Shown: positions 1 to 62,982 of the stretch, in pieces
How the letters are laid out: every line of letters starts with the position of its first letter
Numbering within the stretch: position 1 is the first letter of the stretch
Assembly: GCA_002239025.1 (NCBI GenBank)
Contig: MPNM01000003.1
Span: forward strand, 142,047-206,046
DNA: 64,000 nt
Direction of reading: 5' to 3'
Origin: Chloroflexi bacterium bin125
GTDB lineage: Bacteria; Chloroflexota; Dehalococcoidia; Bin125
Position numbers and translations under genes: made by a program
Notes under the pieces: model-generated
Database searches by the model: none
The model's input: only the letters and a program-made list of their open reading frames with translations
Told to the model about the DNA's origin: nothing

Positions 1-632
1 GCCAGGGACGCGAGATCGAACTGAGCCAACTCAGCGCGACTGTGGCGCTGCTTGGTGCGCAATGGATGCAGTTCGACCAGCTTGGCGAAGACCTGCCGCG
101 TCTCGGCAACTCCGATCCCAACATGTGTCCGCACGGGGTGTTTCCATCGACGGGAGACGATCAGTGGGTCGCCATCGCGCTGGAGTCAGAAGATCAGTGG
201 CCGGCGTTTGCAGAGACCATCGGGCGACCGGAGTGGATCCAGGAGGCATCGCTGCAGTCGGTGGATGGTCGTAGAGCGCGTAACGACGAGGTTGAGGCGG
301 CAATCGGCGAGTGGACATCGCGGCTCACAAAGTGGGAAGCGGCCGAGGCATTGCAGACAGACGGGATCGCAGCCAACGCCGTCGAGGATCTGCGAGACAT
401 GATGGACATCGACGAACACTTCCGCGATCACTACCAGCGCGTCGAGCAGCCGTCGCATCCTGGATTTGGCATTTGGATCGACGGCGGGCCGTGGGAGTTT
501 GCGCACCTGGAAAAACGATTCCTCGAACGAGCGCCAATGCTCGGCGAGCACAACGAGGCAATCCTCGGCGGACTGCTGGGCAAGAGCGAGGCTGAAATCG
601 CCGAGTTGGTCGCTGCCGGCGTCGTAGGCTGA
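1..632 (+). CDS. CoA-transferase family III (CaiB/BaiF-like), C-terminal fragment; the 5' end lies outside the window
   Basis: The reading frame is open from the window edge (codon phase from nt 3) with no upstream stop. The product has the typical C-terminal dimerisation region of family III CoA-transferases and matches the two CaiB-like domains of the 2781..5309 ORF. Confidence 0.7.
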   Translation, partial: QGREIELSQLSATVALLGAQWMQFDQLGEDLPRLGNSDPNMCPHGVFPSTGDDQWVAIALESEDQWPAFAETIGRPEWIQEASLQSVDGRRARNDEVEAAIGEWTSRLTKWEAAEALQTDGIAANAVEDLRDMMDIDEHFRDHYQRVEQPSHPGFGIWIDGGPWEFAHLEKRFLERAPMLGEHNEAILGGLLGKSEAEIAELVAAGVVG

Positions 633-2780: not shown

Positions 2781-5309
2781 CTAGCGAATCACTTCCGAGA
2801 TCATCAGATCCGTCATCTCGTCCTCGCTCAGCCCCAGCACGTGTCGGTAGACCTCTTCGTTGTGCTCTCCGAAGAATGGCGCGCGACGGATCGGCAGACG
2901 TTCGCCGTTCCAGAGGAAGGGCTGATTCTGTGCCATGAACTTCATCCCGATCGGATGATCGAACTCGTGGAAGAACCCGTCTAGCGACGGATCGGATTCA
3001 ACCAGGTCCTGGATGTCCTCATTTGGACCAGCCGGGATGCCCGCCGCTACCAATATCTCCGTCGCTTCCCAGAGATCCTGGCAGGAGGTCCAGGCAGTGA
3101 CGGCCGACTCGATCTCCTCCTCGGCAGCCTTGCGGCCGCTCAACGTTCGTAGATCATCGCGAGCCGCAAGGTCATCGCGTCCAATGACGCGACACAACTC
3201 CAGCCAATCGACCGTGTTGCGCACATCAAGGGCCAGCCATTTGTCGTCGCCCGCGCATTGGAAGTTGCCGTGGGGCGACGACTCGGGTGATCGATTGCCA
3301 CGACGTGGCGGGGTCTCGCCGTTGGCCAGTTGCTCGATCAGTTCCGTGTCGAGCAAGTGGATGCCTGCCTCATACTGGGGAATCTCGACTTCCTGGCCGA
3401 CGCCGGTGCGCTCGCGCTGAATCAGTGCCGAGACGATGGCCGTCACGGCTAATGGCGCGAGTGTGAAGTCGGTGTGCAGCAGCACGCCGGTTGGCTTCCG
3501 ATCGGAGGGGCCGGTGTGTGCAGCCAGGCCACAGAGCGCAACGACGCTATTGCCGATGCCCTTCCACGACGCTTTCGGACCCCAGGTGCCCATCACCGGG
3601 AAACTGGCGCACACGATGCGCGGATTGATCTTCTTCAGGTCGTCATAGCCCAGGCCGAGGCGCTTCATCACGCCGCCGGTGAAGTTGTCGGTGACCACAT
3701 CCGCATCGCGGATCAGGTCGTAGGCGATGCGCAGGCCGTCAGGAGCGCTGAGATTGACATTGACGCTGCGCTTATCGGTGTTGCAGTCCTGGAAGAATGC
3801 CCCGGTCTCAATCGAGGGTGGATCGTGGGCATTGAGCGCGACGCGCAGCGTGTCAATCCGCGCGTCCGACTCAATCTTGATCACATCCGCGCCCAGATTC
3901 GCCATCAGCTCCGTCGTCAAAGGACCTGCCGCCTGCCAGCAGAAATCAATCACTCGAATGCCCTTGAGCGGCAGGTCATCGCGATCGATCGCTCGGCCCA
4001 AATGCGTGCCATTCTGCGCCGCATCAGTCAGAGGGCGTCTGCTCCGCGCGTTCCGCTCTCCCCCCGCTGAGCGGGGGGAGATGCCGAAGGCAGAGGGGGG
4101 TCCAACAACCAGCCCGCTTGCTGCCATTCGCTCATACTCGGCTTCGTCCACATCAAGCAGCTCTGCCAGCACATCAGCCGAGTCCGCTCCCAGCGTCGGC
4201 GCCGGACGCCCGACCGGCTCGTATCCGGTTGAATGGACTGGCAATCGCGGCAAATCAATCGTGCGATCAAACTGCGGATGTTCGACCGGCAAGAATGCGC
4301 CACGTTCGTGGAGATGCGGATCCTCAACAATGTCTTTGACCGAGTTCACCGGCACCACGAGGAAGCCTCGTGACTGTCCCTCGAAACACAGCTCGTCGCG
4401 TGGCAACGTGGCGCAGGCTCGCTGGAATGCCTGGTGCGTCTCGCTGCCCCAGTCAGGCATCCAGATGTCGCCCGGACGCTCAGTCCCAAGCAGCCCGTCG
4501 TAGCCAACCCGTTCATTCAACCACTCGGCGAAGGCGGCGTAGCGCTCGTCGGTGGTCGGCACGAGCCCGAACGTCACCCATTCGCCGTCCTTGGCCTGCA
4601 CGAGGAAGGAAATGTGGCCGCCCGGCCGGTACGCCTTCTCGCCCATGTGAACCCACATGTTCTCGTTGGCGAAGTGGATCGTGGTCGAGAGAATCGCCTC
4701 CTGTAGCGAGATGTACGCGTGGTTGGCTCGGTCGCCGTTGCGACGGTCGTAGAGCATGGCGGCCGCCGTCGCCGCGGCGACCTGGCTGGCCTGCTTGTAG
4801 GCCAGCCGTCCCGCCGGATAGTCGGGTGCGACCTCGGGGAACCCCAGACCCAGCATGAGACCGCCACTGGCGACACCGACAATGTCGGAGGCTGGCGGCT
4901 CTTCGCCACCGCGCCGCATGACGGCGTCAACAACCCCCAGGTGGGGATGCAAACGCTGCAGCCGCTCACGATCAAAGAAGCGGCGAGCGGAGGCAGACTT
5001 GTCCAATGGGGCCAGAACGACGTCGGCACCAGCCAACAGCCGATCAATCAGATCCCATGCGCCCGGCGCATCGAAGTTCAACGCCAGGCTGCGCTTGCCC
5101 GCGTTGTAGAGCAGGTGGCGCAGTCCGCTCTCAGGGTCGTTGTGTCCCTCAAGATGCGGACCAGCAATGCGCAGAGCGTCTCCGGCAGCGGACTCGACGC
5201 GAATCACGTCGGCGCCAAAGTCGGACAGCCAGCGAGCGCCGAGCACCAGGCACTCGTCGCTGAGGTCAATGACGACTGAGCCGGTCAGGGGAAGATCGGA
5301 TCCCTGCAT
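2781..5309 (-). CDS. Two complete CoA-transferase family III (CaiB/BaiF) modules of about 400 aa each in one open frame. This is either a fused didomain protein or two tandem paralog genes joined by an in-frame palindromic repeat.
   Basis: The track ORF 2781..5312 starts at TTG; ATG at 5309 is one codon later and overlaps the stop of the upstream crotonase gene (TGATG). Module 1 spans about 5309..4110 and module 2 about 3995..2781, beginning LPLKGIRVIDFCWQAAGP. The roughly 70 nt linker 4043..4112 is a family-1 repeat translated as PSAFGISPRSAGGE. A TTG start at about 4004 could alternatively begin a separate second gene. Confidence 0.6.
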   Translation of the reverse strand: MQGSDLPLTGSVVIDLSDECLVLGARWLSDFGADVIRVESAAGDALRIAGPHLEGHNDPESGLRHLLYNAGKRSLALNFDAPGAWDLIDRLLAGADVVLAPLDKSASARRFFDRERLQRLHPHLGVVDAVMRRGGEEPPASDIVGVASGGLMLGLGFPEVAPDYPAGRLAYKQASQVAAATAAAMLYDRRNGDRANHAYISLQEAILSTTIHFANENMWVHMGEKAYRPGGHISFLVQAKDGEWVTFGLVPTTDERYAAFAEWLNERVGYDGLLGTERPGDIWMPDWGSETHQAFQRACATLPRDELCFEGQSRGFLVVPVNSVKDIVEDPHLHERGAFLPVEHPQFDRTIDLPRLPVHSTGYEPVGRPAPTLGADSADVLAELLDVDEAEYERMAASGLVVGPPSAFGISPRSAGGERNARSRRPLTDAAQNGTHLGRAIDRDDLPLKGIRVIDFCWQAAGPLTTELMANLGADVIKIESDARIDTLRVALNAHDPPSIETGAFFQDCNTDKRSVNVNLSAPDGLRIAYDLIRDADVVTDNFTGGVMKRLGLGYDDLKKINPRIVCASFPVMGTWGPKASWKGIGNSVVALCGLAAHTGPSDRKPTGVLLHTDFTLAPLAVTAIVSALIQRERTGVGQEVEIPQYEAGIHLLDTELIEQLANGETPPRRGNRSPESSPHGNFQCAGDDKWLALDVRNTVDWLELCRVIGRDDLAARDDLRTLSGRKAAEEEIESAVTAWTSCQDLWEATEILVAAGIPAGPNEDIQDLVESDPSLDGFFHEFDHPIGMKFMAQNQPFLWNGERLPIRRAPFFGEHNEEVYRHVLGLSEDEMTDLMISEVIR
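4056..4100. repeat. Family-1 palindromic repeat unit (CTCTCCCCCC-gctgagc-GGGGGGAG + ATGCCGAAGGCAGAGGGGGG) lying in-frame inside the didomain CoA-transferase ORF
   Basis: Exact match to the family-1 core. The flanking 4043..4112 is the only non-CaiB-like part of the ORF. Confidence 0.85.
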
Positions 5310-6082
5310 CAATCCAGACTAGATTCGTACGGATGTAGCCGATAGAGGTCACTCATTCGATGACCGATCAACTGCATGCGCAGGTCGTCGTCGAGCTGCG
5401 GCCAGAGTGAGCGATTGATCGACTCCTTGACCACGCCGAGATATCCGTGTCGTTCTTGCCCCAGGGCCGACAATCGATTGGCCAGCGCATCGACTTCCTC
5501 TTGCAGCATGCCGGGCTCTGCGACTCTGGTCACCAGCTCAAGTTCGGCCGCTTCCGCGGCCGAGATGAACTGGTCATCCAGAATCAACCTGGTCGCATGT
5601 TTCAGTCCGACGTACTTGGGCAGGAAGGCCGTGGCCGAGATGACCATCCTCAGCTTGGCCTCAGGATCGACGATCGCGTAGTCCGAGGCCAGCATCAGGT
5701 CGAATCCCGATCCCATGCAGTAGCCCTGGACCTGTGCGATCACAATCTGCGGGATGCGTCGGAGCAGCGACTGCAAACGGAAGTAGGGATGCCGCTCGAG
5801 GTTGAACGCCGCGATGTGCGGTGCATGGTACGGATTCTGCCAGGGATAGTCGGGAATGCTGCCGTCGCTGCCCTCGGAGACATCATCGCCCGAGCAAAAT
5901 GAACGTCCAGCCCCAGCCAGGATCAAGACCTGCACCGACGGATCGCGGCCGACCCGATTGACGACATCGACCATGGCGTCGCCGACCTCGGTGTTGATCG
6001 CGTTGTGACGCTCGGGACGGTTAATCGTCAGCCGCGTGACCGGCCCATCCTCGACGATGAGTTCACTGTGTGTCGTGGGCAT
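5309..6082 (-). CDS. Enoyl-CoA hydratase/isomerase (crotonase) family
   Basis: ATG start at 6082. The 257-aa product has a crotonase fold, with the N-terminal pattern LTINRPERHNAIN and the oxyanion-hole region ILAGAGRSFCSGDD. Confidence 0.8.
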   Translation of the reverse strand: MPTTHSELIVEDGPVTRLTINRPERHNAINTEVGDAMVDVVNRVGRDPSVQVLILAGAGRSFCSGDDVSEGSDGSIPDYPWQNPYHAPHIAAFNLERHPYFRLQSLLRRIPQIVIAQVQGYCMGSGFDLMLASDYAIVDPEAKLRMVISATAFLPKYVGLKHATRLILDDQFISAAEAAELELVTRVAEPGMLQEEVDALANRLSALGQERHGYLGVVKESINRSLWPQLDDDLRMQLIGHRMSDLYRLHPYESSLD

Positions 6083-6197: not shown

Positions 6198-7052
6198 ATG
6201 GCCGAACGACTGAACAACGTGATTCAACTGATCGAGTCCGACAAGCCTGCCTTCGGGCCCTTCCTGCCCGCCGGATCGATTCCCGACGCAACCTGGATCG
6301 CGTCCTCCGACTACGACTTCGTCGTCTACGAACTGGAACACAATGCGTTCAACCTCAGCGACCTGCGATTGTCGCTGCAGTTCATGCTCGACCGGCGACA
6401 GATACTTGAGTCCGGCTCGCTCGCACCCAGAGTCACGCCGATGGTGCGGATTCCCGTTAACGGACGCGAGCAGAGCCAGTGGATCGTCAAGCAAGTCCTC
6501 GACATCGGCGTCTACGGAATCGTCTTTCCGATGATCAACACGCCCGAGGACGCGGTCGCTGCGTTGCAGGCCGCTCGATACATCCAGGCGGCTGATGCAC
6601 CGGACCAGGAGCCGGTCGGACGACGCGGCCACGCTCCCGGTAACGTGCTGCGCTATTGGGGACTGGATCAACCAGAATACTTCGACCGCGCCGATGTCTG
6701 GCCACTCGATCCGAACGGCGAGATTCTCGCCTGCCTGCAATGCGAGACGATCGAGGGCGTCAATAATCTGCCCGCGATCCTCGACGCCGTGCCCAACCCC
6801 GGGCTAATCCTGATCAGCGAGAGCGACCTGTCGGTCTCGATGGGGCTCAAGGGAGCGCCCGGACCGCAAGTCGATGAGGCCGTCCAACGAGCGCGCGAAA
6901 TCTGTCAGGAGCGAGGCGTCTACTACGGCTCGCCGCAAGTCGACATGGCCAACGTTGAGCAACGAATCAACGAGGGTTTCTCCTTCCTCATGCCCGGCGC
7001 AGCCCGCGTGTCAGAGGCACTGAATCGGGGTAGGGAGTTAGCCGGTCGCTAG
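6198..7052 (+). CDS. HpcH/HpaI-family 2-keto-3-deoxy acid aldolase (class II, pyruvate-releasing)
   Basis: An internal ATG at 6198 (M55 of the track ORF) is preceded by GGAG. The product MAERLNNVIQLIESDKPAFGPF matches the HpcH/HpaI aldolase TIM barrel (VRIPVNGREQSQWIVKQVLDIGVYGIVFPMINTPEDA). Confidence 0.75.
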   Translation: MAERLNNVIQLIESDKPAFGPFLPAGSIPDATWIASSDYDFVVYELEHNAFNLSDLRLSLQFMLDRRQILESGSLAPRVTPMVRIPVNGREQSQWIVKQVLDIGVYGIVFPMINTPEDAVAALQAARYIQAADAPDQEPVGRRGHAPGNVLRYWGLDQPEYFDRADVWPLDPNGEILACLQCETIEGVNNLPAILDAVPNPGLILISESDLSVSMGLKGAPGPQVDEAVQRAREICQERGVYYGSPQVDMANVEQRINEGFSFLMPGAARVSEALNRGRELAGR

Positions 7053-7097
7053 TCAGTGCCTCGGTACAGCGGATGACCGGGAAGTGATCTCGCAAAC

Positions 7098-7276
7098 ACT
7101 CCGTCATTTCCGCGCTTGTCGCGGGAATCTCGATAAGTGGTGCAGAGACGTCATTTCTTGAGGACAAGGCTGTTCGCTCCAGGATGCGGTGGCAGAAGCG
7201 ACCGTTCTTCGTGGTTCGGCGAGATACCCCCGTTCAGGCCTTGGCAGGCTTCGCGGCAGGCGCGGGTATGACGGAG
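7098..7276. mobile_element. Family-2 MITE-like element of about 180 bp with hairpin-containing terminal inverted repeats (ACTCCGTCATTTCCGCGCttgtcGCGGGAATCTCG ... CGAGATACCCCC...GCGCGGGTATGACGGAG)
   Basis: The TIRs read ctccgtcat.cccgcg...cgcgggtatgacggag. A similar element is at 59800..59952, and single arms are at 11231..11266, 23371..23406 and 29011..29040. Confidence 0.65.
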
Positions 7277-7392
7277 GCGGGGATATGCGACTGCCGGAGT
7301 CGCTGCGTCGCGTTGTCAAATTGTGTAGCTTGTGATACGCAGCGCCATACGTTGAGTATGGCTTCGTTTTGGTATGGAATCAGAGGAACGAC

Positions 7393-8814
7393 ATGTCGGC
7401 CATTCAGTCGGAGAAGCAAGAGATCGCCCAGATGGCGCACCTGATGCGCCGGGCTGGGTTTGGCGCGTCCCGCGACGAGCTGGAGCGGCTCGTGGAACAG
7501 GGCTACGAGGAGACCGTCGAGCAGTTGGTCGACCCGCCTGCTCATATTCCCCGAGCTGACCTGCACCAGCTATTCCGCTACATGCCGTCACTCGAGACCG
7601 GCGGCCCCGTGACCGTGCCCGGCGCGGCCAACTGGCTCTACCACCTGATCAATACGCAGCGGCCGCTGGAAGAGAAGATGGCGCTCTTCTGGCACGGTGT
7701 CTTTGCGGTCGGCAACTCTAAGGTCGACAACGACAATCACCTGATCGCGCAGATCGACATGTTTCGCGATCACGGAACGGGTAACTACCGCGACTTGCTG
7801 ATCATGCTGGCCCAGAACCCGGCCATGATTTACTGGCTCGACAACCACGAGAATCACAAGCGCTCGCCCAACGAGAACTGGGGCCGCGAGCTCCTGGAGC
7901 TGTTCTCGATGGGCGTCGGCAACTACACCGAGAAGGATGTCTTCGAGTGCGCCCGTGCCTTCACCGGCTGGACGCTGGGCCCAAAGATCCCGCGCGTTCC
8001 CAACCATCGCTTCTTCTTCCAGTTCGAGTTCCGTCCCGAGGAGCACGACTACGGCGAGAAGGAGTTCCTCGGGCGCAAGGGCAACTTCGACGGCCTCGAC
8101 ATCATCGACATCATCCTCGAAGAAGAGGCCTGCCCGCGTTTCATCGTCCGACACCTGTACAACTTCTTCGTCGCCGACGAGGCCCAGGTTCCGGCCTGGA
8201 ACATCGAACCGCCCAATGATCCAGAGGCGATCGACTACCTCGCCGGCGTGTTCAAGGACTCCAACTTCGAGATCAAGCCTGTCCTGCGGGCGCTATTCAA
8301 CTCCGACTTCTTCAAGGAAGCAACGTTCCAGAAGGTCAAGAGCCCAGTTGAGACCGTCGTCGGCACGCTCCGCCTGACCGAACACATGACTGGTCCGCAG
8401 CTCGACCTGATCAGCCTCGGCCAGGAGTCGGCGCACATGGGTCAGAGTTTGCACAACCCGCCGTCGGTCGAGGGTTGGCAAACCGGTCGCGACTGGATCA
8501 ACTCCGGCGCTGTGGTCGGACGAATCAACTTCGTCGCCGACCGCGTCAGCGACACCGAGATGCCGGGCGTTCAGAAGATCGTCCAGCGCGTTGCTGCGGC
8601 CAATGGCAGGCAGATGAGCCCGGACGAGATGGTCGACCATTGCCTCGACCTGATCGGCCCACTCAATGTGGCGGATGTCACCAGGCTCGAATTGATCGAG
8701 CACGCCTCGGAGCAGGGCGACCTCTCCTGGAGCGACGACTACGACGGTTCCTCCGAGCGCGTCGGCGAGATGCTCGCCCTGATCGCGGCAACGACGGAGT
8801 ACCAATTCGGCTAA
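7393..8814 (+). CDS. DUF1800 family protein
   Basis: The start was chosen at M9 of the track ORF (AGAGGA upstream). The protein is large, conserved and soluble, and is immediately followed by a DUF1501 gene, which is the classic pairing. Confidence 0.7.
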
Positions 8815-10028: not shown

Positions 10029-10160
10029 GCTCCCCCTAAGGGGGTCTGTCGAGGTGATCTTTTCTCCCCCCTCTGGGGGGAGATGCCGAAGGCAGAGGGG
10101 GGCGCAGCGCAGAATATCCCCTCTGTCGCTCCGCGACATCTCCCCCGCGAGCGGGGGAGA
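10029..10160. repeat. Cluster of three family-1 repeat units (one short hairpin, one full unit, one inverted partial unit) between the DUF1501 and NHL genes
   Basis: gctccccctaagggggtc; tctcccccctctggggggagatgccgaaggcagagggggg at 10063..10102; cccctctgtcgctccgcgacatctcccccgcgagcgggggaga. Confidence 0.85.
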
Positions 10161-11213: not shown

Positions 11214-11362
11214 CCATCTCGAAGGATGGAACTCCGTCATACCCGCGCTCCGACGCGGGTATCTCGAAGAGTCCAGAACGCTCTTCGTGATTGCCGCGAC
11301 AAGCGCGGCAATCACGAGATCGTTGGTTTCAAACTCGATTGAAGCACCATGAAGAGTTCGAG

Positions 11363-19906: not shown

Positions 19907-20020
19907 GAAAAAAGAGCTCCCCCTTTGGGGGAGCTGGCCCGCAGGGTCTGAGGGGGCTCCCGGCGACAAGCACTGTTCGTCGAGCCAGCCCCCTCGCCCG
20001 CTGCGCGGGAGCTCCCCCAA
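19907..20020. repeat. Two inverted family-1 variant units (gagctccccctttgggggagctgg... / ...gggagctcccccaaaggggagc)
   Basis: They lie in the intergenic region between the amidohydrolase-2 and 2-HADH genes. The palindromic arms ctccccc/ggggag are present. Confidence 0.75.
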
Positions 20021-23344: not shown

Positions 23345-23446
23345 GTCTGGGTCCAAGACGCAGGCACAACTCTCGTCATTCCTGCGCTCCGTCGCGGGAA
23401 TCTCGCCGCTGCCAGCACCTACGCCGTCCTTGCTCGAGCGGTTGTC

Positions 23447-29073: not shown

Positions 29074-29191
29074 AAATTTTCCAGTCCCCGCTTTACGCGG
29101 GGACCTGCTCCCTCCCTGTAGGGGACTCCACCACCAGATATCCCGTGTTGCCAGAGCGGGTCCCCGCGTAAAGCGGGGACTGGAATTTGAC
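29074..29191. mobile_element. Family-4 MITE-like element: inverted pair TCAAATTTTCCAGTCCCCGCTTTACGCGGGGAC ... GTCCCCGCGTAAAGCGGGGACTGGAATTTGACC flanking a core of about 50 bp
   Basis: The 33-nt TIRs are near-perfect. Single arms recur at 52337..52372 and 59736..59765. The element lies upstream of pyk. Confidence 0.7.
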
Positions 29192-29332: not shown

Positions 29333-30808
29333 GTGCAGATGACTTCCAGACGCCGTGCCAAGATTGTCGCCACCCTCGGACCAGCCTCCAGCGATCCTGC
29401 GACAGTCCTTGAATTGGTCAACGCCGGCCTCGATGTCGCCAGGATCAACTTCTCCCACGGGGATGAATCCTCCTGGACCCGCGCCGTCCAGACCGTCCGC
29501 CGCGCCCAGGCCGAGACGGGCAAGCCTGTGGCCATTCTCGGCGATCTGCAGGGACCGAAGATTCGAATCGGCTCCGTGCCCGACGGCACCGAAATCACGC
29601 GTGGAGAGCGAGTCGACATCCTCGCTGGAAGCGACGCTGAACCCGAGTATGACGGAAACTGCTTGGTCCTCAATTGCAACTATGCGGCCCTCGTCGATGA
29701 GGTCGAGACCGGCGGGCGCGTGTACCTGCGCGACGGCGAACTCGATCTACTGATCGAGGAGATCGTCGGCAGTCGGATCCGCACCACTGTCCGCGGCGGT
29801 GGACTGCTGACCGCTCGGGCCGGACTACACGCGCCCGGGGCCGGCAAACAGTTGCCCGCGGTGACGGAACGCGATCGCGAGCACATCGGCTTTGCCGTCC
29901 GTCACGGCTTCGACTTCCTCGCGCTCTCTTTCGTGCGCAGCGGCCTCGATCTGGCTGAAGCCAGCGCCGCAGTCCACGAAGCAGGCGGTGAACTCCCCTT
30001 GATCGCCAAAATCGAAACCCTCTCCGCCATTCAGGACCTGCAGGAAATCATCGCTGTCTCAGACGGCGTCATGGTCGCGCGCGGCGACCTCGGTGTCGAA
30101 GTCGGACCGGCCGAAGTGCCGGTCCTGCAGCGACACATCATCGAAGCCGCCGGACGCGCTCTGTTGCCGGTCATCATCGCCACACAGATGCTCGAATCGA
30201 TGGTCCAGCGCCAGCGACCGACACGCGCGGAGGCCTCCGATGTCGCCAACGCCGTCTGGGACGGCGCCGACGCCCTCATGCTCTCTGCCGAGACCGCTGT
30301 CGGACGTCACCCGGTTGAGGTCGTCGACATGATGGACGACATCATCCGCCGCGCGGAGTCCAGCGACGCTGGACGGACCGCCGTCGCTCGGCCGATCGAG
30401 CTCAAGGCCGACACCGCTCGAACCGTCGCAGTCGCCGTTGCCGCTGCCGTCGAGCAGCACCCGCAGGTCCGTGCCGTGATCGTCTTCACCATCAGCGGAC
30501 GCTCAGGACGCCTGATCTCCCACGTTCGTCTGCCTGTGCCGGTGCTCGTGCTCGCTCCTGGAGACTCCACCCTCCAGCGACTGGCGCTCATGTGGGGTGT
30601 CCAACCGCGCCACTGCCCACCGCCCGACGATATCGAGGGGATGCTGACAGAAGTCGAACGTGCCTCAGTCGACGCGCTTGACCTCAAGCCAGGCGATCAG
30701 ATCGTCCTCACAGGAGGATTCCCCCTCGGCCAGGGCGAACCAACCAACTTCCTCAAACTCCACCAGATCCCTTCAATCCCCTCTCCCTCTGGGAGAGGGT
30801 TAGGGTGA
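29333..30808 (+). CDS. pyk: Pyruvate kinase
   Basis: The N-terminus RRAKIVATLGPASSDPATVLELVNAGLDVARINFSHG and a full barrel plus C-terminal domain are present. The last 12 or so codons and the stop lie inside a family-3 repeat. Confidence 0.9.
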   Translation: MQMTSRRRAKIVATLGPASSDPATVLELVNAGLDVARINFSHGDESSWTRAVQTVRRAQAETGKPVAILGDLQGPKIRIGSVPDGTEITRGERVDILAGSDAEPEYDGNCLVLNCNYAALVDEVETGGRVYLRDGELDLLIEEIVGSRIRTTVRGGGLLTARAGLHAPGAGKQLPAVTERDREHIGFAVRHGFDFLALSFVRSGLDLAEASAAVHEAGGELPLIAKIETLSAIQDLQEIIAVSDGVMVARGDLGVEVGPAEVPVLQRHIIEAAGRALLPVIIATQMLESMVQRQRPTRAEASDVANAVWDGADALMLSAETAVGRHPVEVVDMMDDIIRRAESSDAGRTAVARPIELKADTARTVAVAVAAAVEQHPQVRAVIVFTISGRSGRLISHVRLPVPVLVLAPGDSTLQRLALMWGVQPRHCPPPDDIEGMLTEVERASVDALDLKPGDQIVLTGGFPLGQGEPTNFLKLHQIPSIPSPSGRGLG

Positions 30809-30817
30809 GGGCGAGGG
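30778..30817. repeat. Family-3 repeat overlapping the 3' end and stop codon of pyk
   Basis: cccctctccctctgggagagggttagggtgagggcgagggc. The TGA stop of pyk lies inside GGGTGAGGGC. Confidence 0.75.
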
Positions 30818-31237: not shown

Positions 31238-32321
31238 TCACATGTACGTCCGCCGGCGCAATCCTGGCGACGGCCGCGTCTCCAACCGACAGCCCTAGCT
31301 CATCCCACTTCGTCACCGAAGTATCAACGGTCAGGTGCAGCCGGCCGCTCGTCAGGTCGGCCCGAACCACCGGCCCTCGAGGCCTGATCTTCTGCACAAT
31401 CGCCCGAAGCTGGTTCTCCGTCCCCGCCTCTGAGCGGGTACCCGTTCCCTCCCCGTCCCGAGTCAGCACAATCCGCTCCGGGCGAACGCAGAGCAGCGCC
31501 GGCGAGCCCGGAGCGATCGACTTCGACGTCGACGCCAGACGAATGCCTCCCGCCTCGTAGACGCCCGACTCCGAGCGTCGCCCATGCCACAAGTTTTCCA
31601 TCCCCACAAACTCAGCGACAGCGCGGTCGGCAGGCCGTTCGAAGACCTCCGAGGGAGGTCCAGTCTGCCGCAGTCGTCCATCAATCAGCAGTGCCGCCTC
31701 GTCTCCGAGACGCAATGCCTCATCGCGGTCGTGTGTGACCAACACCGTGGTCGGGCGTGTCTCGGAGAGATTCTCGGCAAAGTCCTCAATCAACCCCTCC
31801 CGAGTCGGCGCGTCGACTCCCGCAAATGGCTCGTCCAGCAACATCACCTGCGGCTGCGAGGCAAAGGCACGCGCCAGACTGACCCGTTGTGCTTCCCCGC
31901 CTGACAACTGTCGCGCATGCCGTCGGGCCAACGAGGCAATCCCAAATCGCTCCAGCCAGTGTTCCGCTAGTTCGCGCCGCCTTCGTTTGTCGACCCCGCG
32001 CAGCCTGAGCGGCAGTTCAACATTTGCCAGTACCGACATGCTCAGCAACAGGGGTTCCTGGAACGCCGCCGACATCCGCCGCCGAGTCGCGACCGGATCG
32101 GCATCCATCGGTTCGCCATCAAGCATCAGTGTCCCCTGAGAAGGATGAAGCACAAGTTGCAGCGCGCCGAGGAGCGTCGACTTACCCGATCCATTGGGGC
32201 CAAGTACTACGGTCACCAATCCGCGAGGGATGTCCAGCTTGTCGATTTCCAGCACCGTCACGCGGCCGCGCTGTACGGCAAGGTCCCGGATCTGCAGATG
32301 AGCGTCAGGGCGCGTTGTCAT
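31215..32321 (-). CDS. ABC transporter ATP-binding protein with a C-terminal TOBE-like domain (molybdate/tungstate/sulfate-type)
   Basis: Walker A GPNGSGKST, signature LSGGEAQRVSLARA and Walker B LLDEP are present. A C-terminal region of about 120 aa is typical of ModC/CysA/TupC transport-associated OB folds. Confidence 0.8.
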   Translation of the reverse strand: MTTRPDAHLQIRDLAVQRGRVTVLEIDKLDIPRGLVTVVLGPNGSGKSTLLGALQLVLHPSQGTLMLDGEPMDADPVATRRRMSAAFQEPLLLSMSVLANVELPLRLRGVDKRRRRELAEHWLERFGIASLARRHARQLSGGEAQRVSLARAFASQPQVMLLDEPFAGVDAPTREGLIEDFAENLSETRPTTVLVTHDRDEALRLGDEAALLIDGRLRQTGPPSEVFERPADRAVAEFVGMENLWHGRRSESGVYEAGGIRLASTSKSIAPGSPALLCVRPERIVLTRDGEGTGTRSEAGTENQLRAIVQKIRPRGPVVRADLTSGRLHLTVDTSVTKWDELGLSVGDAAVARIAPADVHVISDDGAD

Positions 32322-40556: not shown

Positions 40557-41801
40557 ATGTCCCGGTTCTTCAGTTGGGCGCTTGTCGCCCTCATAGCGCT
40601 GTCCGTATCGGCAGCGCTCACCATTGGTTGCTCCGACGACGAACAGCAGCAACAACAAGCGGCGGAAAATCAAGAGAGTGAGTCTGCCGCAGAGTCTCGA
40701 ACGAGCACAGCACAACACCAACAACAGCAGGATCCGCCGCCTGCGGACGACGGCGAGCCGCTCAATATCGTGGTTTCCACGCAAGTCATCGCCGACTGGG
40801 TCCGCCAGATTGGTGGAGATCGTGTCAACGTGCGCGCGCTGGTTCCGGCTGGCGCCGACGCTCACACCCTCGAACTGAGCGTCACCGACATCCGAGCCGT
40901 CGCAGACGCTGATCTCGTGATCATCAACGGAGCCGGCCTCGAGGCCTCCTACCAGGATGCCATCCTCGAGAATGCCGAAAGCTTGCTTGACCTGGCAGAG
41001 ACGATCGAAGCGCAAGGCTACGAGCTGCATCCGTTCGAAAGCATGATGTCGCTCGACGACGAGCACGATCAGCAGGAGCACCAACAAGACGATCACGACC
41101 AACACGACCAGGACGATCAACACGACCAGGACGAACAGCAGGAACATCAGCAGGACCACGACGAAGATCAGCAGCAGCATCAACAGGATCACGAGCAGGA
41201 CGACCACGACCAGCAGCAGCATCAACAGGATCACGAGCAGGATGACCACGACCAGCAGCAACACCAGGACGAGCAGGCTCACCAACACGACCACAGCGGC
41301 GAGGACCCGCACTTCTGGTTTGACACCGATTTGGCCCAGGCTGCGATCCAGGTGATCGCTGCGTCGCTAACCGAGTTGATTCCAGCTGCGGAGGATGAGA
41401 TCTCAAAGGGGCTTGAATCGTACCTTGAGGAGATTGGAGCCGCCGATGCCGAGGTCAAGTCGCTGCTGGCCGGCCTTCCGGAGACTCAGCGGCTCCTCGT
41501 GACCTTCCACGATGCCTTTGGCTACTTTGCGCGCCGTTACGGTCTCCAGGTGGCAGGATTCGTAGTCGAAGGACCGGAACAGGGCGTCAGCGCGGAGGCC
41601 TTGACCGAACTGATCGAACTCATCGAACACGAAGGCGTGCAAACGGTATTCCACGAGCCGCAGTTCGACTCAGCAATCCTCGACACCGTCTCTGCTGAGA
41701 CCGGCGCCGGCCGGGGCATTATCTGGTCGCAGCCGACCGATGACAACCCGACCTACATCGGCATCCTCGTCGGCAATGCGAAGGCCATTGCGGAACAATA
41801 G
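40557..41801 (+). CDS. znuA: Metal (zinc-type) ABC transporter substrate-binding protein with a very long His/Asp/Gln-rich loop
   Basis: A signal peptide with lipobox LTIGCSDD is followed by the ZnuA/TroA cluster-9 fold. The flexible loop of about 90 aa, of the DDEHDQQEHQQDDHDQHDQ...HQHDHSGEDPHFWFD type, is characteristic of ZnuA. Confidence 0.8.
   Translation: MSRFFSWALVALIALSVSAALTIGCSDDEQQQQQAAENQESESAAESRTSTAQHQQQQDPPPADDGEPLNIVVSTQVIADWVRQIGGDRVNVRALVPAGADAHTLELSVTDIRAVADADLVIINGAGLEASYQDAILENAESLLDLAETIEAQGYELHPFESMMSLDDEHDQQEHQQDDHDQHDQDDQHDQDEQQEHQQDHDEDQQQHQQDHEQDDHDQQQHQQDHEQDDHDQQQHQDEQAHQHDHSGEDPHFWFDTDLAQAAIQVIAASLTELIPAAEDEISKGLESYLEEIGAADAEVKSLLAGLPETQRLLVTFHDAFGYFARRYGLQVAGFVVEGPEQGVSAEALTELIELIEHEGVQTVFHEPQFDSAILDTVSAETGAGRGIIWSQPTDDNPTYIGILVGNAKAIAEQ
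41060..41300 (+). repeat. Imperfect tandem DNA repeat (unit about 48 nt, 2-3 copies) encoding the His/Asp/Gln loop of ZnuA
   Basis: catcaacaggatcacgagcaggacgaccacgaccagcagcagca is repeated almost exactly, giving the peptide QQHQQDHEQDDHDQQ twice. Confidence 0.6.
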
Positions 41802-59714: not shown

Positions 59715-59799
59715 GTGCCGCAACCCAGAGCAAGTCCCCAGTCCCCGCTTCACGCGGGGACCCGCTCCTTCCCCAGTCCCATTCCCTTGTCAGACTGCC

Positions 59800-59952
59800 T
59801 CTCCGTCATACCCGCGCTCCGACGCGGGTATCTCGTTGCACGCGGCACAGAAGGTAAGACCAAGTTGAGAGTATGCGCGCTGCGATTTCCTCAACCGACA
59901 GCGTCTGAGGCGAGCTCGGCGAGATTCCCGCGCCGGAGCGCGGGAATGACGG
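59800..59952. mobile_element. Family-2 MITE-like element of about 150 bp (CTCCGTCATACCCGCGCTCCGACGCGGGTATCTCG ... CGAGATTCCCGCGCCGGAGCGCGGGAATGACGGAG)
   Basis: The 35-nt TIRs are near-perfect and each is itself a hairpin. The element lies between the MFS and S9 peptidase genes. Confidence 0.7.
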
Positions 59953-59986: not shown

Positions 59987-61972
59987 TCACTTCACATGCC
60001 GATCAAGCCAGGCGATCATCCGCTCGTAGTACTCCTTGACCATCGCCGGATCGCCAACTCTGAACATCGAGTGCGAGCAACCAGGGAACCGCACCATCTC
60101 CGCCGGCTTCCCCCGATACCGAAGTCCGGCGAAGTACTCCTCGCCCTGCGAAATCGGCACCCGCCAGTCCGACTCACCGTGCAAGATCAGTACCGGACAG
60201 CGCACGCTGTCGATATATGTGATCGGTGAGCGCTCCCGATACCAGTCGAAGTTGTCGTCCGGCACATCGCCCCACTGATACGAACCCCATGACGGCCCAA
60301 TATCCGACACGCCCCACATGGACCACAGATTCACCACCGGCGCACCCGCGATTGCCGCCTTGAATCGATTGACGTGCCCTATCAACCAGGTCGTCATGTA
60401 TCCACCATACGAATAGCCATGCACGCCGAGCCGATTGGCATCCACATACGGACGCTCACAAACCGCATCAAGCGCCTCAAGCAAATCGAACGAGTCCTCG
60501 CCGCCCCAATCGACGGTCACTGCATCGGTGAAGTTGGCCCCATACGTCGACGACCCACGAGGATTGACAAACAACACCAGGTATCCCGCGCCCGCGATCA
60601 CCTGGTGCAGAGCATTGAATCCCTCGCCAAAGAACCCATTCGGCCCACCATGAATCTCCATCACCAGCGGATAAGACTGGTCAGGATCAAATCCCGGCGG
60701 GTACATCAATCCACAGGGAATCTCCCACCCATCCCGCTCAACAGTGAAGAACTCAACTGCACCGATCTCGCGAGATTCAACGAAATCGGTAGCTGCATTC
60801 GTCAGCCGGCTCTCTTTTCTCCCCCCCTTGGGGGGAGATGCCGAAGGCAGAGGGGGGCTCCCCGTTTGCACTGACACAACCTCCCCAGGACCATCCGGAG
60901 TCGTTGAAACAACCGCTAGCAACGCTCCATCAGCCGACACGTCAAACCCATTGATCAACTCGGCTTCAGCCCGAATCGTCTCGGGTTCCCCCAAGCCCTC
61001 GGCCGACACTCGGTACACGCCTGAGCGTCCACGTACATCGGCGGCAAACGTGATCCCCTCATCCGTCCAGACCATCTTCGGCGGGCCAGAGATCGGAAAG
61101 AATCCCGATTGCGGATTGACCGAGTCGTCCGTCAGCCGGGTCCGCTCGCCGCTATAGCGCTCAACCCGCTCGAGATACGCCTGGTGGCGCTGCGACATGT
61201 CAGTCACCGATACCGCCAACGACAACCCACCCGGCGACCAACAGGCCCGTCCAGCCGACATCACTCCTGGCGTCAGTCGTTCAACATGCCCGCCGCCAGC
61301 CACGCCCTGAGTCGACATCACGCACAGCTCGGATCCAAACGGACGCCGCCGCTCACGATCCACGTTGCGGTCGGCCGTGAACGCCACCCACCGACCATCC
61401 GGCGAGACCACCGGATGCGCATGGTTGTACGTCCCGCTCGTCAACTGAAGCTCGCAACCAGTCGAGGCGTCAACCCGAAACAGTTGATGCCACGCATCCT
61501 CGCGATAACCCAATACATCGCCCCGATAGTACGTTTCACGCACAACGGTCGTCTTTGAGCCGTCGCGCTGGCCACGATGAGGGTCAATATCCACGACCGC
61601 AATCATTCCCGAGCCGTCCGGCAGCCAGTCAAACCCGGCCACGGAGTGCTCCAGGTTCGTCAGTCGTCGAGCCTCGCCGCCGTCCGTCGGAAGCAACCAG
61701 ATCTGCCGAGGCGCTCCTGCCTCAGCCGAGGACGGCCGCAGAAACGCCAGCACTGATCCGTCCGGAGCCCAAACCGGACTCGAGTCCGAGTCACCCGAAG
61801 TCAGCCCCCTCGATTCGCCACCCTCGAACGGAGCGCACTCAATCCAGGAAACCCGCTTGCCTTCCTGAACTTGGCCGCGAACATAAGCAACCACCAACCC
61901 ATCCGGCGAAATCGCCGGAGCCCCAACCCCACCCAACTCAAACGCAATCTCCGGCCCAATCGGAGTCTTCAT
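59987..61972 (-). CDS. S9-family serine peptidase (prolyl-oligopeptidase/acylaminoacyl-peptidase type) with an N-terminal beta-propeller
   Basis: The start was chosen at M31 of the track ORF; the first 30 codons are repeat-derived. The catalytic domain has GVHGYSYGGYMT (Ser) with downstream Asp and His, and the propeller shows repeated PDG...VA blades. A family-1 repeat is in-frame at the domain boundary at about 60817..60862. Confidence 0.8.
   Translation of the reverse strand: MKTPIGPEIAFELGGVGAPAISPDGLVVAYVRGQVQEGKRVSWIECAPFEGGESRGLTSGDSDSSPVWAPDGSVLAFLRPSSAEAGAPRQIWLLPTDGGEARRLTNLEHSVAGFDWLPDGSGMIAVVDIDPHRGQRDGSKTTVVRETYYRGDVLGYREDAWHQLFRVDASTGCELQLTSGTYNHAHPVVSPDGRWVAFTADRNVDRERRRPFGSELCVMSTQGVAGGGHVERLTPGVMSAGRACWSPGGLSLAVSVTDMSQRHQAYLERVERYSGERTRLTDDSVNPQSGFFPISGPPKMVWTDEGITFAADVRGRSGVYRVSAEGLGEPETIRAEAELINGFDVSADGALLAVVSTTPDGPGEVVSVQTGSPPLPSASPPKGGRKESRLTNAATDFVESREIGAVEFFTVERDGWEIPCGLMYPPGFDPDQSYPLVMEIHGGPNGFFGEGFNALHQVIAGAGYLVLFVNPRGSSTYGANFTDAVTVDWGGEDSFDLLEALDAVCERPYVDANRLGVHGYSYGGYMTTWLIGHVNRFKAAIAGAPVVNLWSMWGVSDIGPSWGSYQWGDVPDDNFDWYRERSPITYIDSVRCPVLILHGESDWRVPISQGEEYFAGLRYRGKPAEMVRFPGCSHSMFRVGDPAMVKEYYERMIAWLDRHVK
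60817..60862. repeat. Family-1 repeat unit lying in-frame inside the S9 peptidase ORF at the propeller/catalytic-domain boundary
   Basis: tctcccccccttggggggagatgccgaaggcagaggggggctcccc. It is translated (minus strand) as ..PPLPSASPPKGGRKES.. Confidence 0.85.
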
Positions 61973-62945: not shown

Positions 62946-62982
62946 GGCCCTCACCCCATCCCTCTCCCAGAGGGAGAGGGGG
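62946..62982. repeat. Family-3 repeat (inverted orientation) between the alpha/beta hydrolase stop and the LLM gene start
   Basis: gccctcaccccatccctctcccagagggagaggg is the reverse complement of CCCTCTCCCTCTGGGAGAGGGATGGGGTGAGGGC. Confidence 0.7.

Follow-up and report, generated by a model that had tools for sequence, protein, structure and literature searches.

A REP-like palindromic repeat read in frame in the linker of an anciently fused two-domain CoA-transferase of an uncultured Dehalococcoidia bacterium

How does a palindromic repeat come to be read as protein between two enzyme modules? The question is raised by a 64-kb stretch of contig MPNM01000003.1 from an uncultured member of the Dehalococcoidia (Chloroflexota), here called the window, in which an open reading frame (ORF) of 843 codons joins two CoA-transferase modules through a linker that contains such a repeat (Table 1). 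The repeat could have fused two tandem genes, it could lie in the spacer between two genes that are still translated separately, or it could have entered the linker of a gene that was already fused. We consider it probable that a unit resembling the repetitive extragenic palindromic (REP) sequences entered the pre-existing disordered linker of an anciently fused BbsE-BbsF-type transferase, and that such in-frame arrivals were tolerated and recurred.

The ORF belongs to the two-domain subclass of the family III CoA-transferases, which has tandem domains and was defined with a poorly conserved inter-domain linker (PMC6006322). Pfam matches PF02515 (CoA_transf_3) to two stretches of it (E=7.8e-135), and the two CaiB/BaiF modules described in an earlier, sequence-only reading of this DNA are confirmed, on the minus strand. 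Both modules match BbsE or BbsF over their full length (module 1 with BbsE, E=1.3e-19 over residues 14-384; module 2 with BbsF, E=9.2e-66, and at 34% identity by Foldseek). The BbsEF succinyl-CoA:(R)-benzylsuccinate CoA-transferase (9fn0/9fol) is the best match in both structure and sequence. In that enzyme BbsE and BbsF are two subunits, whereas here their counterparts are joined in a single chain, and the gene neighbours in the window differ from those of the bbs operon. Asp615 in module 2 is invariant among the homologues and aligns with BbsF Asp178, the CoA-adduct residue in PDB entry 9fol. Asp164 in module 1 is invariant too, with no BbsE Asp at the aligned position. With 33% identity over the 123 residues compared, the modules are old, diverged paralogues and not the products of a recent tandem duplication. 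An AlphaFold model of the whole protein (predicted template modelling score, pTM, 0.88) reaches target TM-scores of 0.8-0.9 against chains of BbsEF, SUGCT, Frc and CaiB, and the protein is predicted to have the family III fold. NCBIfam gives no equivalog at cut-off, only sub-threshold matches to single-domain transferases, so that a substrate cannot be assigned.

The linker between the modules measures 126 nt, not about 70 nt as first estimated, and the repeat provides 15 of its 42 codons. It is predicted to be disordered, because the predicted local distance difference test (pLDDT) score falls below 50 at residues 409-440, with ten-residue blocks averaging 30-33 across residues 411-440. Its columns are the least conserved and the sole unalignable part of the homologue alignment (A1). 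The repeat unit, a string with a chance expectation of 0, lies in reverse orientation in the ORF and is translated on the minus strand as ..VVG PPSAFGISPRSAGGE RNA.. (residues 405-419), so that the junction reads ..ASGLVVG-PPSAFGISPRSAGGE-RNARSRRPLTDAAQNGTHLGRAIDRDD-LPLKGIRVIDF... This frame is uninterrupted and is kept open in more than 100 homologue clusters. The identical 843-aa protein is encoded on 20 independently assembled contigs, and therefore the read-through is no assembly artefact.

The unit had been described as an exact copy of the family repeat, which it is not: a search tolerating up to 3 mismatches finds no second 45-mer in the window. Identity with other copies, at 10075, 26712 and 60830, is confined to the 3' 28 nt (4073-4100), and hairpin 1 differs in its longer stem and in its loop. 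We also looked for a target-site duplication around 4056-4100, as had been suggested for this site, and none is visible in the flanks (..GTTCCG / unit / TCCAAC..).

The age of the fusion bears on whether the repeat made it. A protein search found more than 120 full-length two-domain homologues (823-890 aa) from 100% down to 44% identity, and the distant ones have unrelated, repeat-free linkers. A genome scan recovered orthologues at 62-94% identity and, in the same genomes, a second two-domain clade at 41-53% identity. Basal members of the window's own clade (loci L015 and L021-L028) are fused and lack any repeat. Since fused homologues with unrelated, repeat-free linkers exist, also among the orthologous loci compared, the fusion was not made by the repeat, and the repeat-mediated fusion put forward as one option in the sequence-only reading falls away. 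It is extremely improbable that the element overwrote the stop codon and spacer of two tandem genes and so created the two-domain ORF, although the unit starts right after ..GLVVG, where the neighbouring single-domain paralogue terminates (..AAGVVG*), and although unfused adjacent pairs are present in some Dehalococcoidia. In these pairs (L062, L063 and L065, at about nt 4250-4380), gene 1 extends about 14 residues past ..TGL.., its TGA overlaps the ATG of gene 2 (ATGA), and no repeat is found; moreover, a two-domain class with variable linkers was already known (PMC6006322). On a midpoint-rooted neighbour-joining (NJ) tree, the unfused pairs fall among fused lineages, which is compatible with one fusion followed by fission or with several fusions. 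As the unfused pairs show, two neighbouring paralogous genes did become joined, long before the repeat arrived. In a further locus, L058, a C-run differs by one C from that of L062, which places its modules in a shared frame, with an in-frame stop between them.

Alternatively, the modules could still be two genes, with the repeat in a functionally intergenic spacer and module 2 translated from an internal TTG, proposed at about 4004 and located at 4001..3999. This codon is in frame and lies 10 codons before the conserved LPLKG motif of module 2. It has, however, no Shine-Dalgarno-like motif within 20 nt upstream, whereas the truly unfused pairs (L062, L063, L065) carry GGAGG 5-8 nt before the ATG of gene 2. 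In orthologues at 94-96% identity the codon is replaced, by Pro in P0003 and by Ser in L003. As module 1 lacks a stop codon, any ribosome that starts on it must read on into module 2. In addition, more than 60 distinct linkers are open and in frame despite indels and insertions, which would be unexpected without selection on read-through. Two separate genes are therefore very unlikely, and the proposed second start finds no support.

A fused gene older than the repeat leaves the question of how the unit reached the linker, and the linkers of related genes differ in what they contain. The window-type unit, in reverse orientation directly after GLVVG, is found in the window and in L007, and in decayed form with an extra insertion in L003. 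Units of a subfamily with a GTCGC-type second hairpin (R2), also reversed, lie about 14 codons further along in L002/6, L008, L010, L013, L017, L032 and L033; they are partly read in another frame, as PSVASRQLPPEGG, and those of L009 and L029 are decayed. Forward-orientation units (F), read as SPRSAGGDAEGRGG, occur in L001, L011, L014, L016 and L018, with decayed versions in L019, L020 and L030. The L005 linker holds an inverted doublet beside a further unit. There are tandem copies in the linkers of L011/P0041 and P0043, where arrays of partial units, read ..PSARRDAARASSLS.. and ..RESPHRAGEER.., add 40-50 residues (P0041, 890 aa; P0043, 881 aa). A different palindromic repeat family, GTCCCCGC/GCGGGGAC, is in frame in the linkers of L004, L012 and L031 (..PVPASERGPV.., ..NGSPIESGTG..). 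Every orthologous linker listed is open and in frame. At 75% identity or above, all full-length homologues except P0056, P0060 and P0061 have an intact or decayed repeat-derived linker; below 72% identity, none has. These states are intermixed on an NJ tree from which the linker was left out, so that explaining them takes several independent insertions, replacements or allele exchanges.

The linker is not the only coding sequence that such units have entered. In the window, an S9 peptidase ORF contains a unit in frame, read as ..GSPPLPSASPPKGGRKE.., between its propeller and hydrolase domains. Orthologues of this peptidase (79-87% identity) are either empty at the site (L076, L078) or carry a forward-orientation unit there, read as SPPAERGEMPKAEGG (L077), and the reverse unit of the window is found among orthologues as well; the divergence between empty and filled alleles is too great for placing the unit boundaries or judging a target-site duplication. 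Beyond the window, an identical 26-nt core occurs in at least 106 metagenome contigs, with a GC content of 33-72% among the matches listed. Of 85 copies among these matches, 5 lie in frame between flanking Pfam domains, in an arginyl-tRNA synthetase (ArgRS), a DnaE-type Pol III alpha, an MTS methyltransferase, a DinB-type polymerase and a SpoIIE phosphatase. The host ORF of L152 was dropped as an in-frame case since it looks spurious.

The metagenome contigs (L080-L159, e.g. L100, L135 and L154) also show the core in other conserved settings. One of these is a composite of small hairpins of about 100-130 nt, ..GGTCCGTAGGAC ATCGCCCC-loop-core-TGYATTTCC TCGGCCGTTAGGCCGG.., with unrelated flanks and no Rfam family.

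Could a single old insertion in the ancestor of the crown group, followed by gene conversion, local inversion, duplication and decay, account for the linker states? The R2-type allele is widespread in the crown clade and may be ancestral, F-type and R2-type units sit at roughly the same place, and repeats are natural substrates for conversion; loci of TM_ECO, a G/C-rich intrastrand-triplex motif, have been reported to be rearrangement-prone (PMC4666352). However, F units are of the A/A TGCC-type subfamily and R2 units of the C/T GTCGC-type subfamily, so that simple inversion cannot connect them. The window-type unit is positioned elsewhere, right after GLVVG, a different repeat family occupies the linker at three separate places in the tree, and the S9 peptidase and the five unrelated proteins show new in-frame arrivals. 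We therefore regard a single insertion as doubtful.

A selected function is a further alternative, in which the unit is kept for ribosome pausing, so that module 1 folds ahead of module 2 in the interlocked fold, or for a suitable length of flexible spacer. Some unit is present in the linker of nearly all crown-group orthologues, the unit is conserved beyond the flanking linker between the window and L007, and the mRNA would form a very stable hairpin (4040-4115, predicted folding -47 kcal/mol, z = -3.3). Against this, position, orientation, subfamily and even repeat family vary by lineage, many copies are decaying, and deeper fused homologues do without any unit. The same units occur in unrelated proteins, and empty S9 alleles are common; tolerance fits these observations better than need, and a selected role appears unlikely. 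Both this explanation and the single insertion fit the varied positions, orientations, families and empty alleles less well than recurrent, tolerated arrivals.

The preferred explanation, tolerated and recurrent in-frame arrival, would work as follows. One unit of a high-copy, G/C-rich, REP-like family, now at 4056-4100, would have been inserted, or copied in via recombination, into a disordered linker that already existed. Three properties could make this tolerable: the linker is presumably free of structural constraint, the unit is stop-free in about 5 of 6 frames, and in any frame the encoded peptide is flexible, with a high content of Pro, Gly, Ser, Ala and Arg. In-frame insertions could survive because nearly every frame is open and the peptide is flexible. 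Frame-breaking insertions would be purged by selection and frame-keeping ones would persist, and only in-frame copies would be observed because selection passes no others. The same process may have struck the linker several times in related lineages, and also loops of unrelated proteins. The unit would then be mobile or recombinogenic, and the insert presumably neutral for the enzyme.

The anatomy of the family bears on these properties. The window holds about 20 units, mostly intergenic, as singletons and 5 inverted doublets (the tabulated one and those at 19917/19989, 33245/33329, 37721/37806 and 52190/52278). Each unit follows the plan x'-CTCCCCC(C) - loop - (G)GGGGGAG-x - small hairpin - y-GAGGGGG(G), that is, a pyrimidine arm, a purine arm, a hairpin and a mirror purine arm, in which arm 3 is the mirror image of arm 2 and not its complement. 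The stem of the small hairpin shows compensatory substitutions (TGCC/GGCA, TGTCAC/GTGACA, TGTCGC/GCGAC, TGCCCC/GGGGCA), and in the subfamily CTTCCCCCC/GGGGGGAAG/GAAGGGGGG (CTTC/GAAG/GAAG) all three arms are altered jointly. The triads at the junction are almost exclusively T-A*A, G-C*T and C-G*G. In register, 88% of the triads are canonical for the purine motif; with arm 3 out of register this falls to 45-58%. Restricted to the informative non-G positions, the values are 78% in register and 3-45% shifted. By analogy with TM_ECO, the three arms may form an intrastrand purine-motif triplex that could make their sites rearrangement-prone. On average 5.1 of the 6 frames of a unit are stop-free, and P, G, R, S, L, A and E are abundant in the encoded peptides. 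Neither the window nor ten metagenome loci with the core gave anything in Rfam at the gathering threshold, and a literature search with the core sequence as a string found no paper containing it. The unit at 19917-19956 was rejected as an in-frame case, as it lies at the extreme 5' end of a dubious, mechanically called ORF that has no Pfam match.

Three known systems resemble this unit in part. The Rickettsia palindromic elements (RPEs; Ogata et al. 2000), as summarised in PMC10969869, are small palindromes that likewise lie in frame in normal genes, at fold-compatible sites, and add a peptide. The suggestion in the sequence-only reading that an element of REP or MITE (miniature inverted-repeat transposable element) type contributes coding sequence here as RPEs do is borne out for a REP-like element, and more strongly than it was put forward, by the open frame in more than 100 clusters, by orthologous linkers with units of different subfamilies at two or more positions and in both orientations, by the S9 peptidase and by the five further proteins. 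MITEs are defined by terminal inverted repeats plus a target-site duplication, and no duplication flanks 4056-4100. The fold-compatible placement is seen in the linker with pLDDT below 50, at the inter-domain site of the S9 peptidase and in those five proteins. According to the same summary, RPEs are Rickettsia-specific and about 100-150 bp long, with a single conserved peptide, in a single frame, encoded by each family. The unit described here is unrelated in sequence and, at about 45 nt, shorter. It is present in Dehalococcoidia and, among the matches listed, in contigs with a GC content of 33-72%, and it is read in at least three frames or orientations rather than one.

REPs and REPINs, which are mobilised by RAYTs (Y1/HUH transposases), are similarly short, palindromic, high-copy and mostly intergenic, and also occur as singletons and inverted doublets. 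Intragenic REPs are on record, including different REPs at about one site of Xanthomonas recB (PMC3733652). The GTAG or CGTC tag of REPs and REPINs is not present in units of the window's main family, and these units are further set apart from REPs by having a mirror-image third arm of purines as well as a second, small hairpin.

The class II intrastrand triplex motifs (PIT/TM_ECO), whose arms give C-G*G, T-A*A and T-A*T triads, form a triplex in vitro and mark rearrangement-prone loci (Holder et al. 2015, PMC4666352). Like the unit, TM_ECO consists of a pyrimidine arm, a loop, a purine arm, a loop and a mirror purine arm, obeys the same triad rules and sits in hypervariable loci. It is known from proteobacteria and is always intergenic in Escherichia coli MG1655 (PMC4666352), whereas the present units are also found in frame inside genes. 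A second difference is the second loop, which is a hairpin of 12-16 nt in the unit and N3 in TM_ECO; ITxF loops were 1-6 nt (PMC4666352), and because loops were limited to this range, hairpin-looped units would have escaped that survey. ORF 29333-30808 ends within one of the two exact TM_ECO matches in the window (30779..30811), which provides its final ~10 codons (..IPSPSGRGLG) and its TAG stop.

Several observations weigh against recurrent, tolerated insertion. No transposase or other trace of mobility was found in the 64-kb window, where RAYTs and transposases were not searched for, and insertion is therefore deduced solely from patterns of presence and absence. Among close relatives there is no empty allele of the window-type insertion, so its boundaries cannot be fixed, and the unit replaces the GPNxRS.. 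segment of other alleles instead of being cleanly added. The window-type allele stands at two places of the NJ tree (the window clade and L007), which fits allele exchange equally well. Compared by eye between the window and L007, the unit shows stronger conservation than the remaining linker, and a repeat in nearly every crown-group orthologue could mean selection, not neutrality. That the linker is translated in a fused product is likewise a deduction from the reading frames. Finally, Holder et al. (PMC4666352) did not detect the TM_ECO triplex in vivo.

Taken with these reservations, three aspects appear to be new: the RPE-like behaviour of a triplex-type unit whose second loop is a hairpin, its repeated arrival in one linker among related lineages, and an identical core in frame in unrelated proteins across phyla. 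For annotation, the locus corrects a tempting story of a repeat-made fusion. It also joins two literatures that have so far been separate, on in-frame selfish palindromes (RPEs and intragenic REPs) and on G/C-rich intrastrand-triplex motifs, which have so far been described as intergenic. If the pattern holds at whole-genome scale, it would provide a testable route by which repeats create or remodel disordered protein segments, and would show, as a natural experiment, how much added sequence fits into a domain linker. More tentatively, these units could form an unrecognised, cross-phylum family of mobile or recombinogenic triplex-type modules that repeatedly colonise genes in frame, where they would quite generally give rise to new disordered linkers and loops and turn the sites into rearrangement hot spots. 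If this were so, the identical 26-nt core at 33-72% GC would reflect horizontal spread or a strongly constrained structure.

Table 1. Coordinates of the two-domain CoA-transferase, its repeat unit and related features in the window (position 1 is the first nucleotide of the window)
Feature	Position	Strand	Remarks
Two-domain family III (CaiB/BaiF-type) CoA-transferase ORF	2781..5312	minus	843 aa; ORF list
Module 1, BbsE-like	4101..5312	minus	residues 1-404; C-terminal end ..ASGLVVG; best PDB match 9fn0_A
Inter-module linker	3975..4100	minus	residues 405-446; 42 codons; predicted disordered
Module 2, BbsF-like	2781..3974	minus	residues 447-843 plus stop; start LPLKGIRVIDF; best PDB match 9fn0_B
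Repeat unit, forward on the plus strand	4056..4100	plus	string CTCTCCCCCCGCTGAGCGGGGGGAGATGCCGAAGGCAGAGGGGGG; reverse orientation in the minus-strand ORF
Arm 1, CTCCCCCC	4058-4065	plus	stem lengthened by GC
Loop of hairpin 1	4068-4070	plus	TGA
Arm 2, GGGGGGAG	4073-4080	plus	
Hairpin 2, (A)TGCCGAAGGCA	4081-4092	plus	
Mirror arm 3, GAGGGGGG	4093-4100	plus	
TTG codon (Leu), proposed internal start	3999..4001	minus	unsupported
Third family III CoA-transferase, C-terminal part	3..632	plus	truncated by window edge; PF02515 profile positions 187-366
Intergenic inverted doublet	10064..10159		units 10064-10101 (+) and 10117-10159 (-)
Exact TM_ECO-consensus match	30779..30811	plus	pattern search; 2 matches in window vs 0 expected
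Exact TM_ECO-pattern match, second of two	62948..62980	minus	pattern search
S9 peptidase ORF with in-frame unit	59987..61972	minus	PD40 and Peptidase_S9 domains flank the unit
In-frame unit in the S9 peptidase	60813..60858	plus	96% identity over 46 nt to the intergenic reference copy at 10058

The genes near the two-domain transferase encode an enoyl-CoA hydratase, a Zn-dependent alcohol dehydrogenase, a 2-hydroxyacid dehydrogenase and another family III transferase. The CaiB paralogue fragment noticed earlier near the start of the window is confirmed as the C-terminal part of a CoA_transf_3 protein (ORF 3..632, plus strand), which ends in ..AAGVVG*. In L002, an adjoining CoA_transf_3 gene (6601-8520, minus strand) of at least 775 aa runs off the locus and may be another two-domain transferase. 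Several related metagenome-assembled genomes bear names that we take to be those of sponge-metagenome bins. Expansions of CaiB/BaiF paralogues, some of them DddD-like, have been described in SAR202-type Chloroflexota (PMC5395668); the lineage of the window is not assigned to SAR202.

Other repeats and duplications were seen in the window. The family GTCCCCGC-loop-GCGGGGAC, followed by a C-rich tail, has copies at 29081-29116, 31418-31453 and 59738-59773. A separate palindromic family, D11 (11232-11266, 23371-23405, 59801-59835 and 59920-59951), starts with CGTC (CGTCATACCCGCGCTCCGACGCGGGTATCTCG) and resembles the CGTC-tagged REP class of PMC3733652. Family D1 is a long low-complexity stretch with a 9-nt period (41049-41311) that encodes an H/D/Q-rich segment within ORF 40557-41801 (plus strand). 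Two pairs of adjacent paralogues, 54610-55698/55708-56796 and 23447-24754/24887-26200, share 75-78% identity over 300-nt stretches (families D2 and D3), and repeat units lie in the spacers around the first of these pairs.

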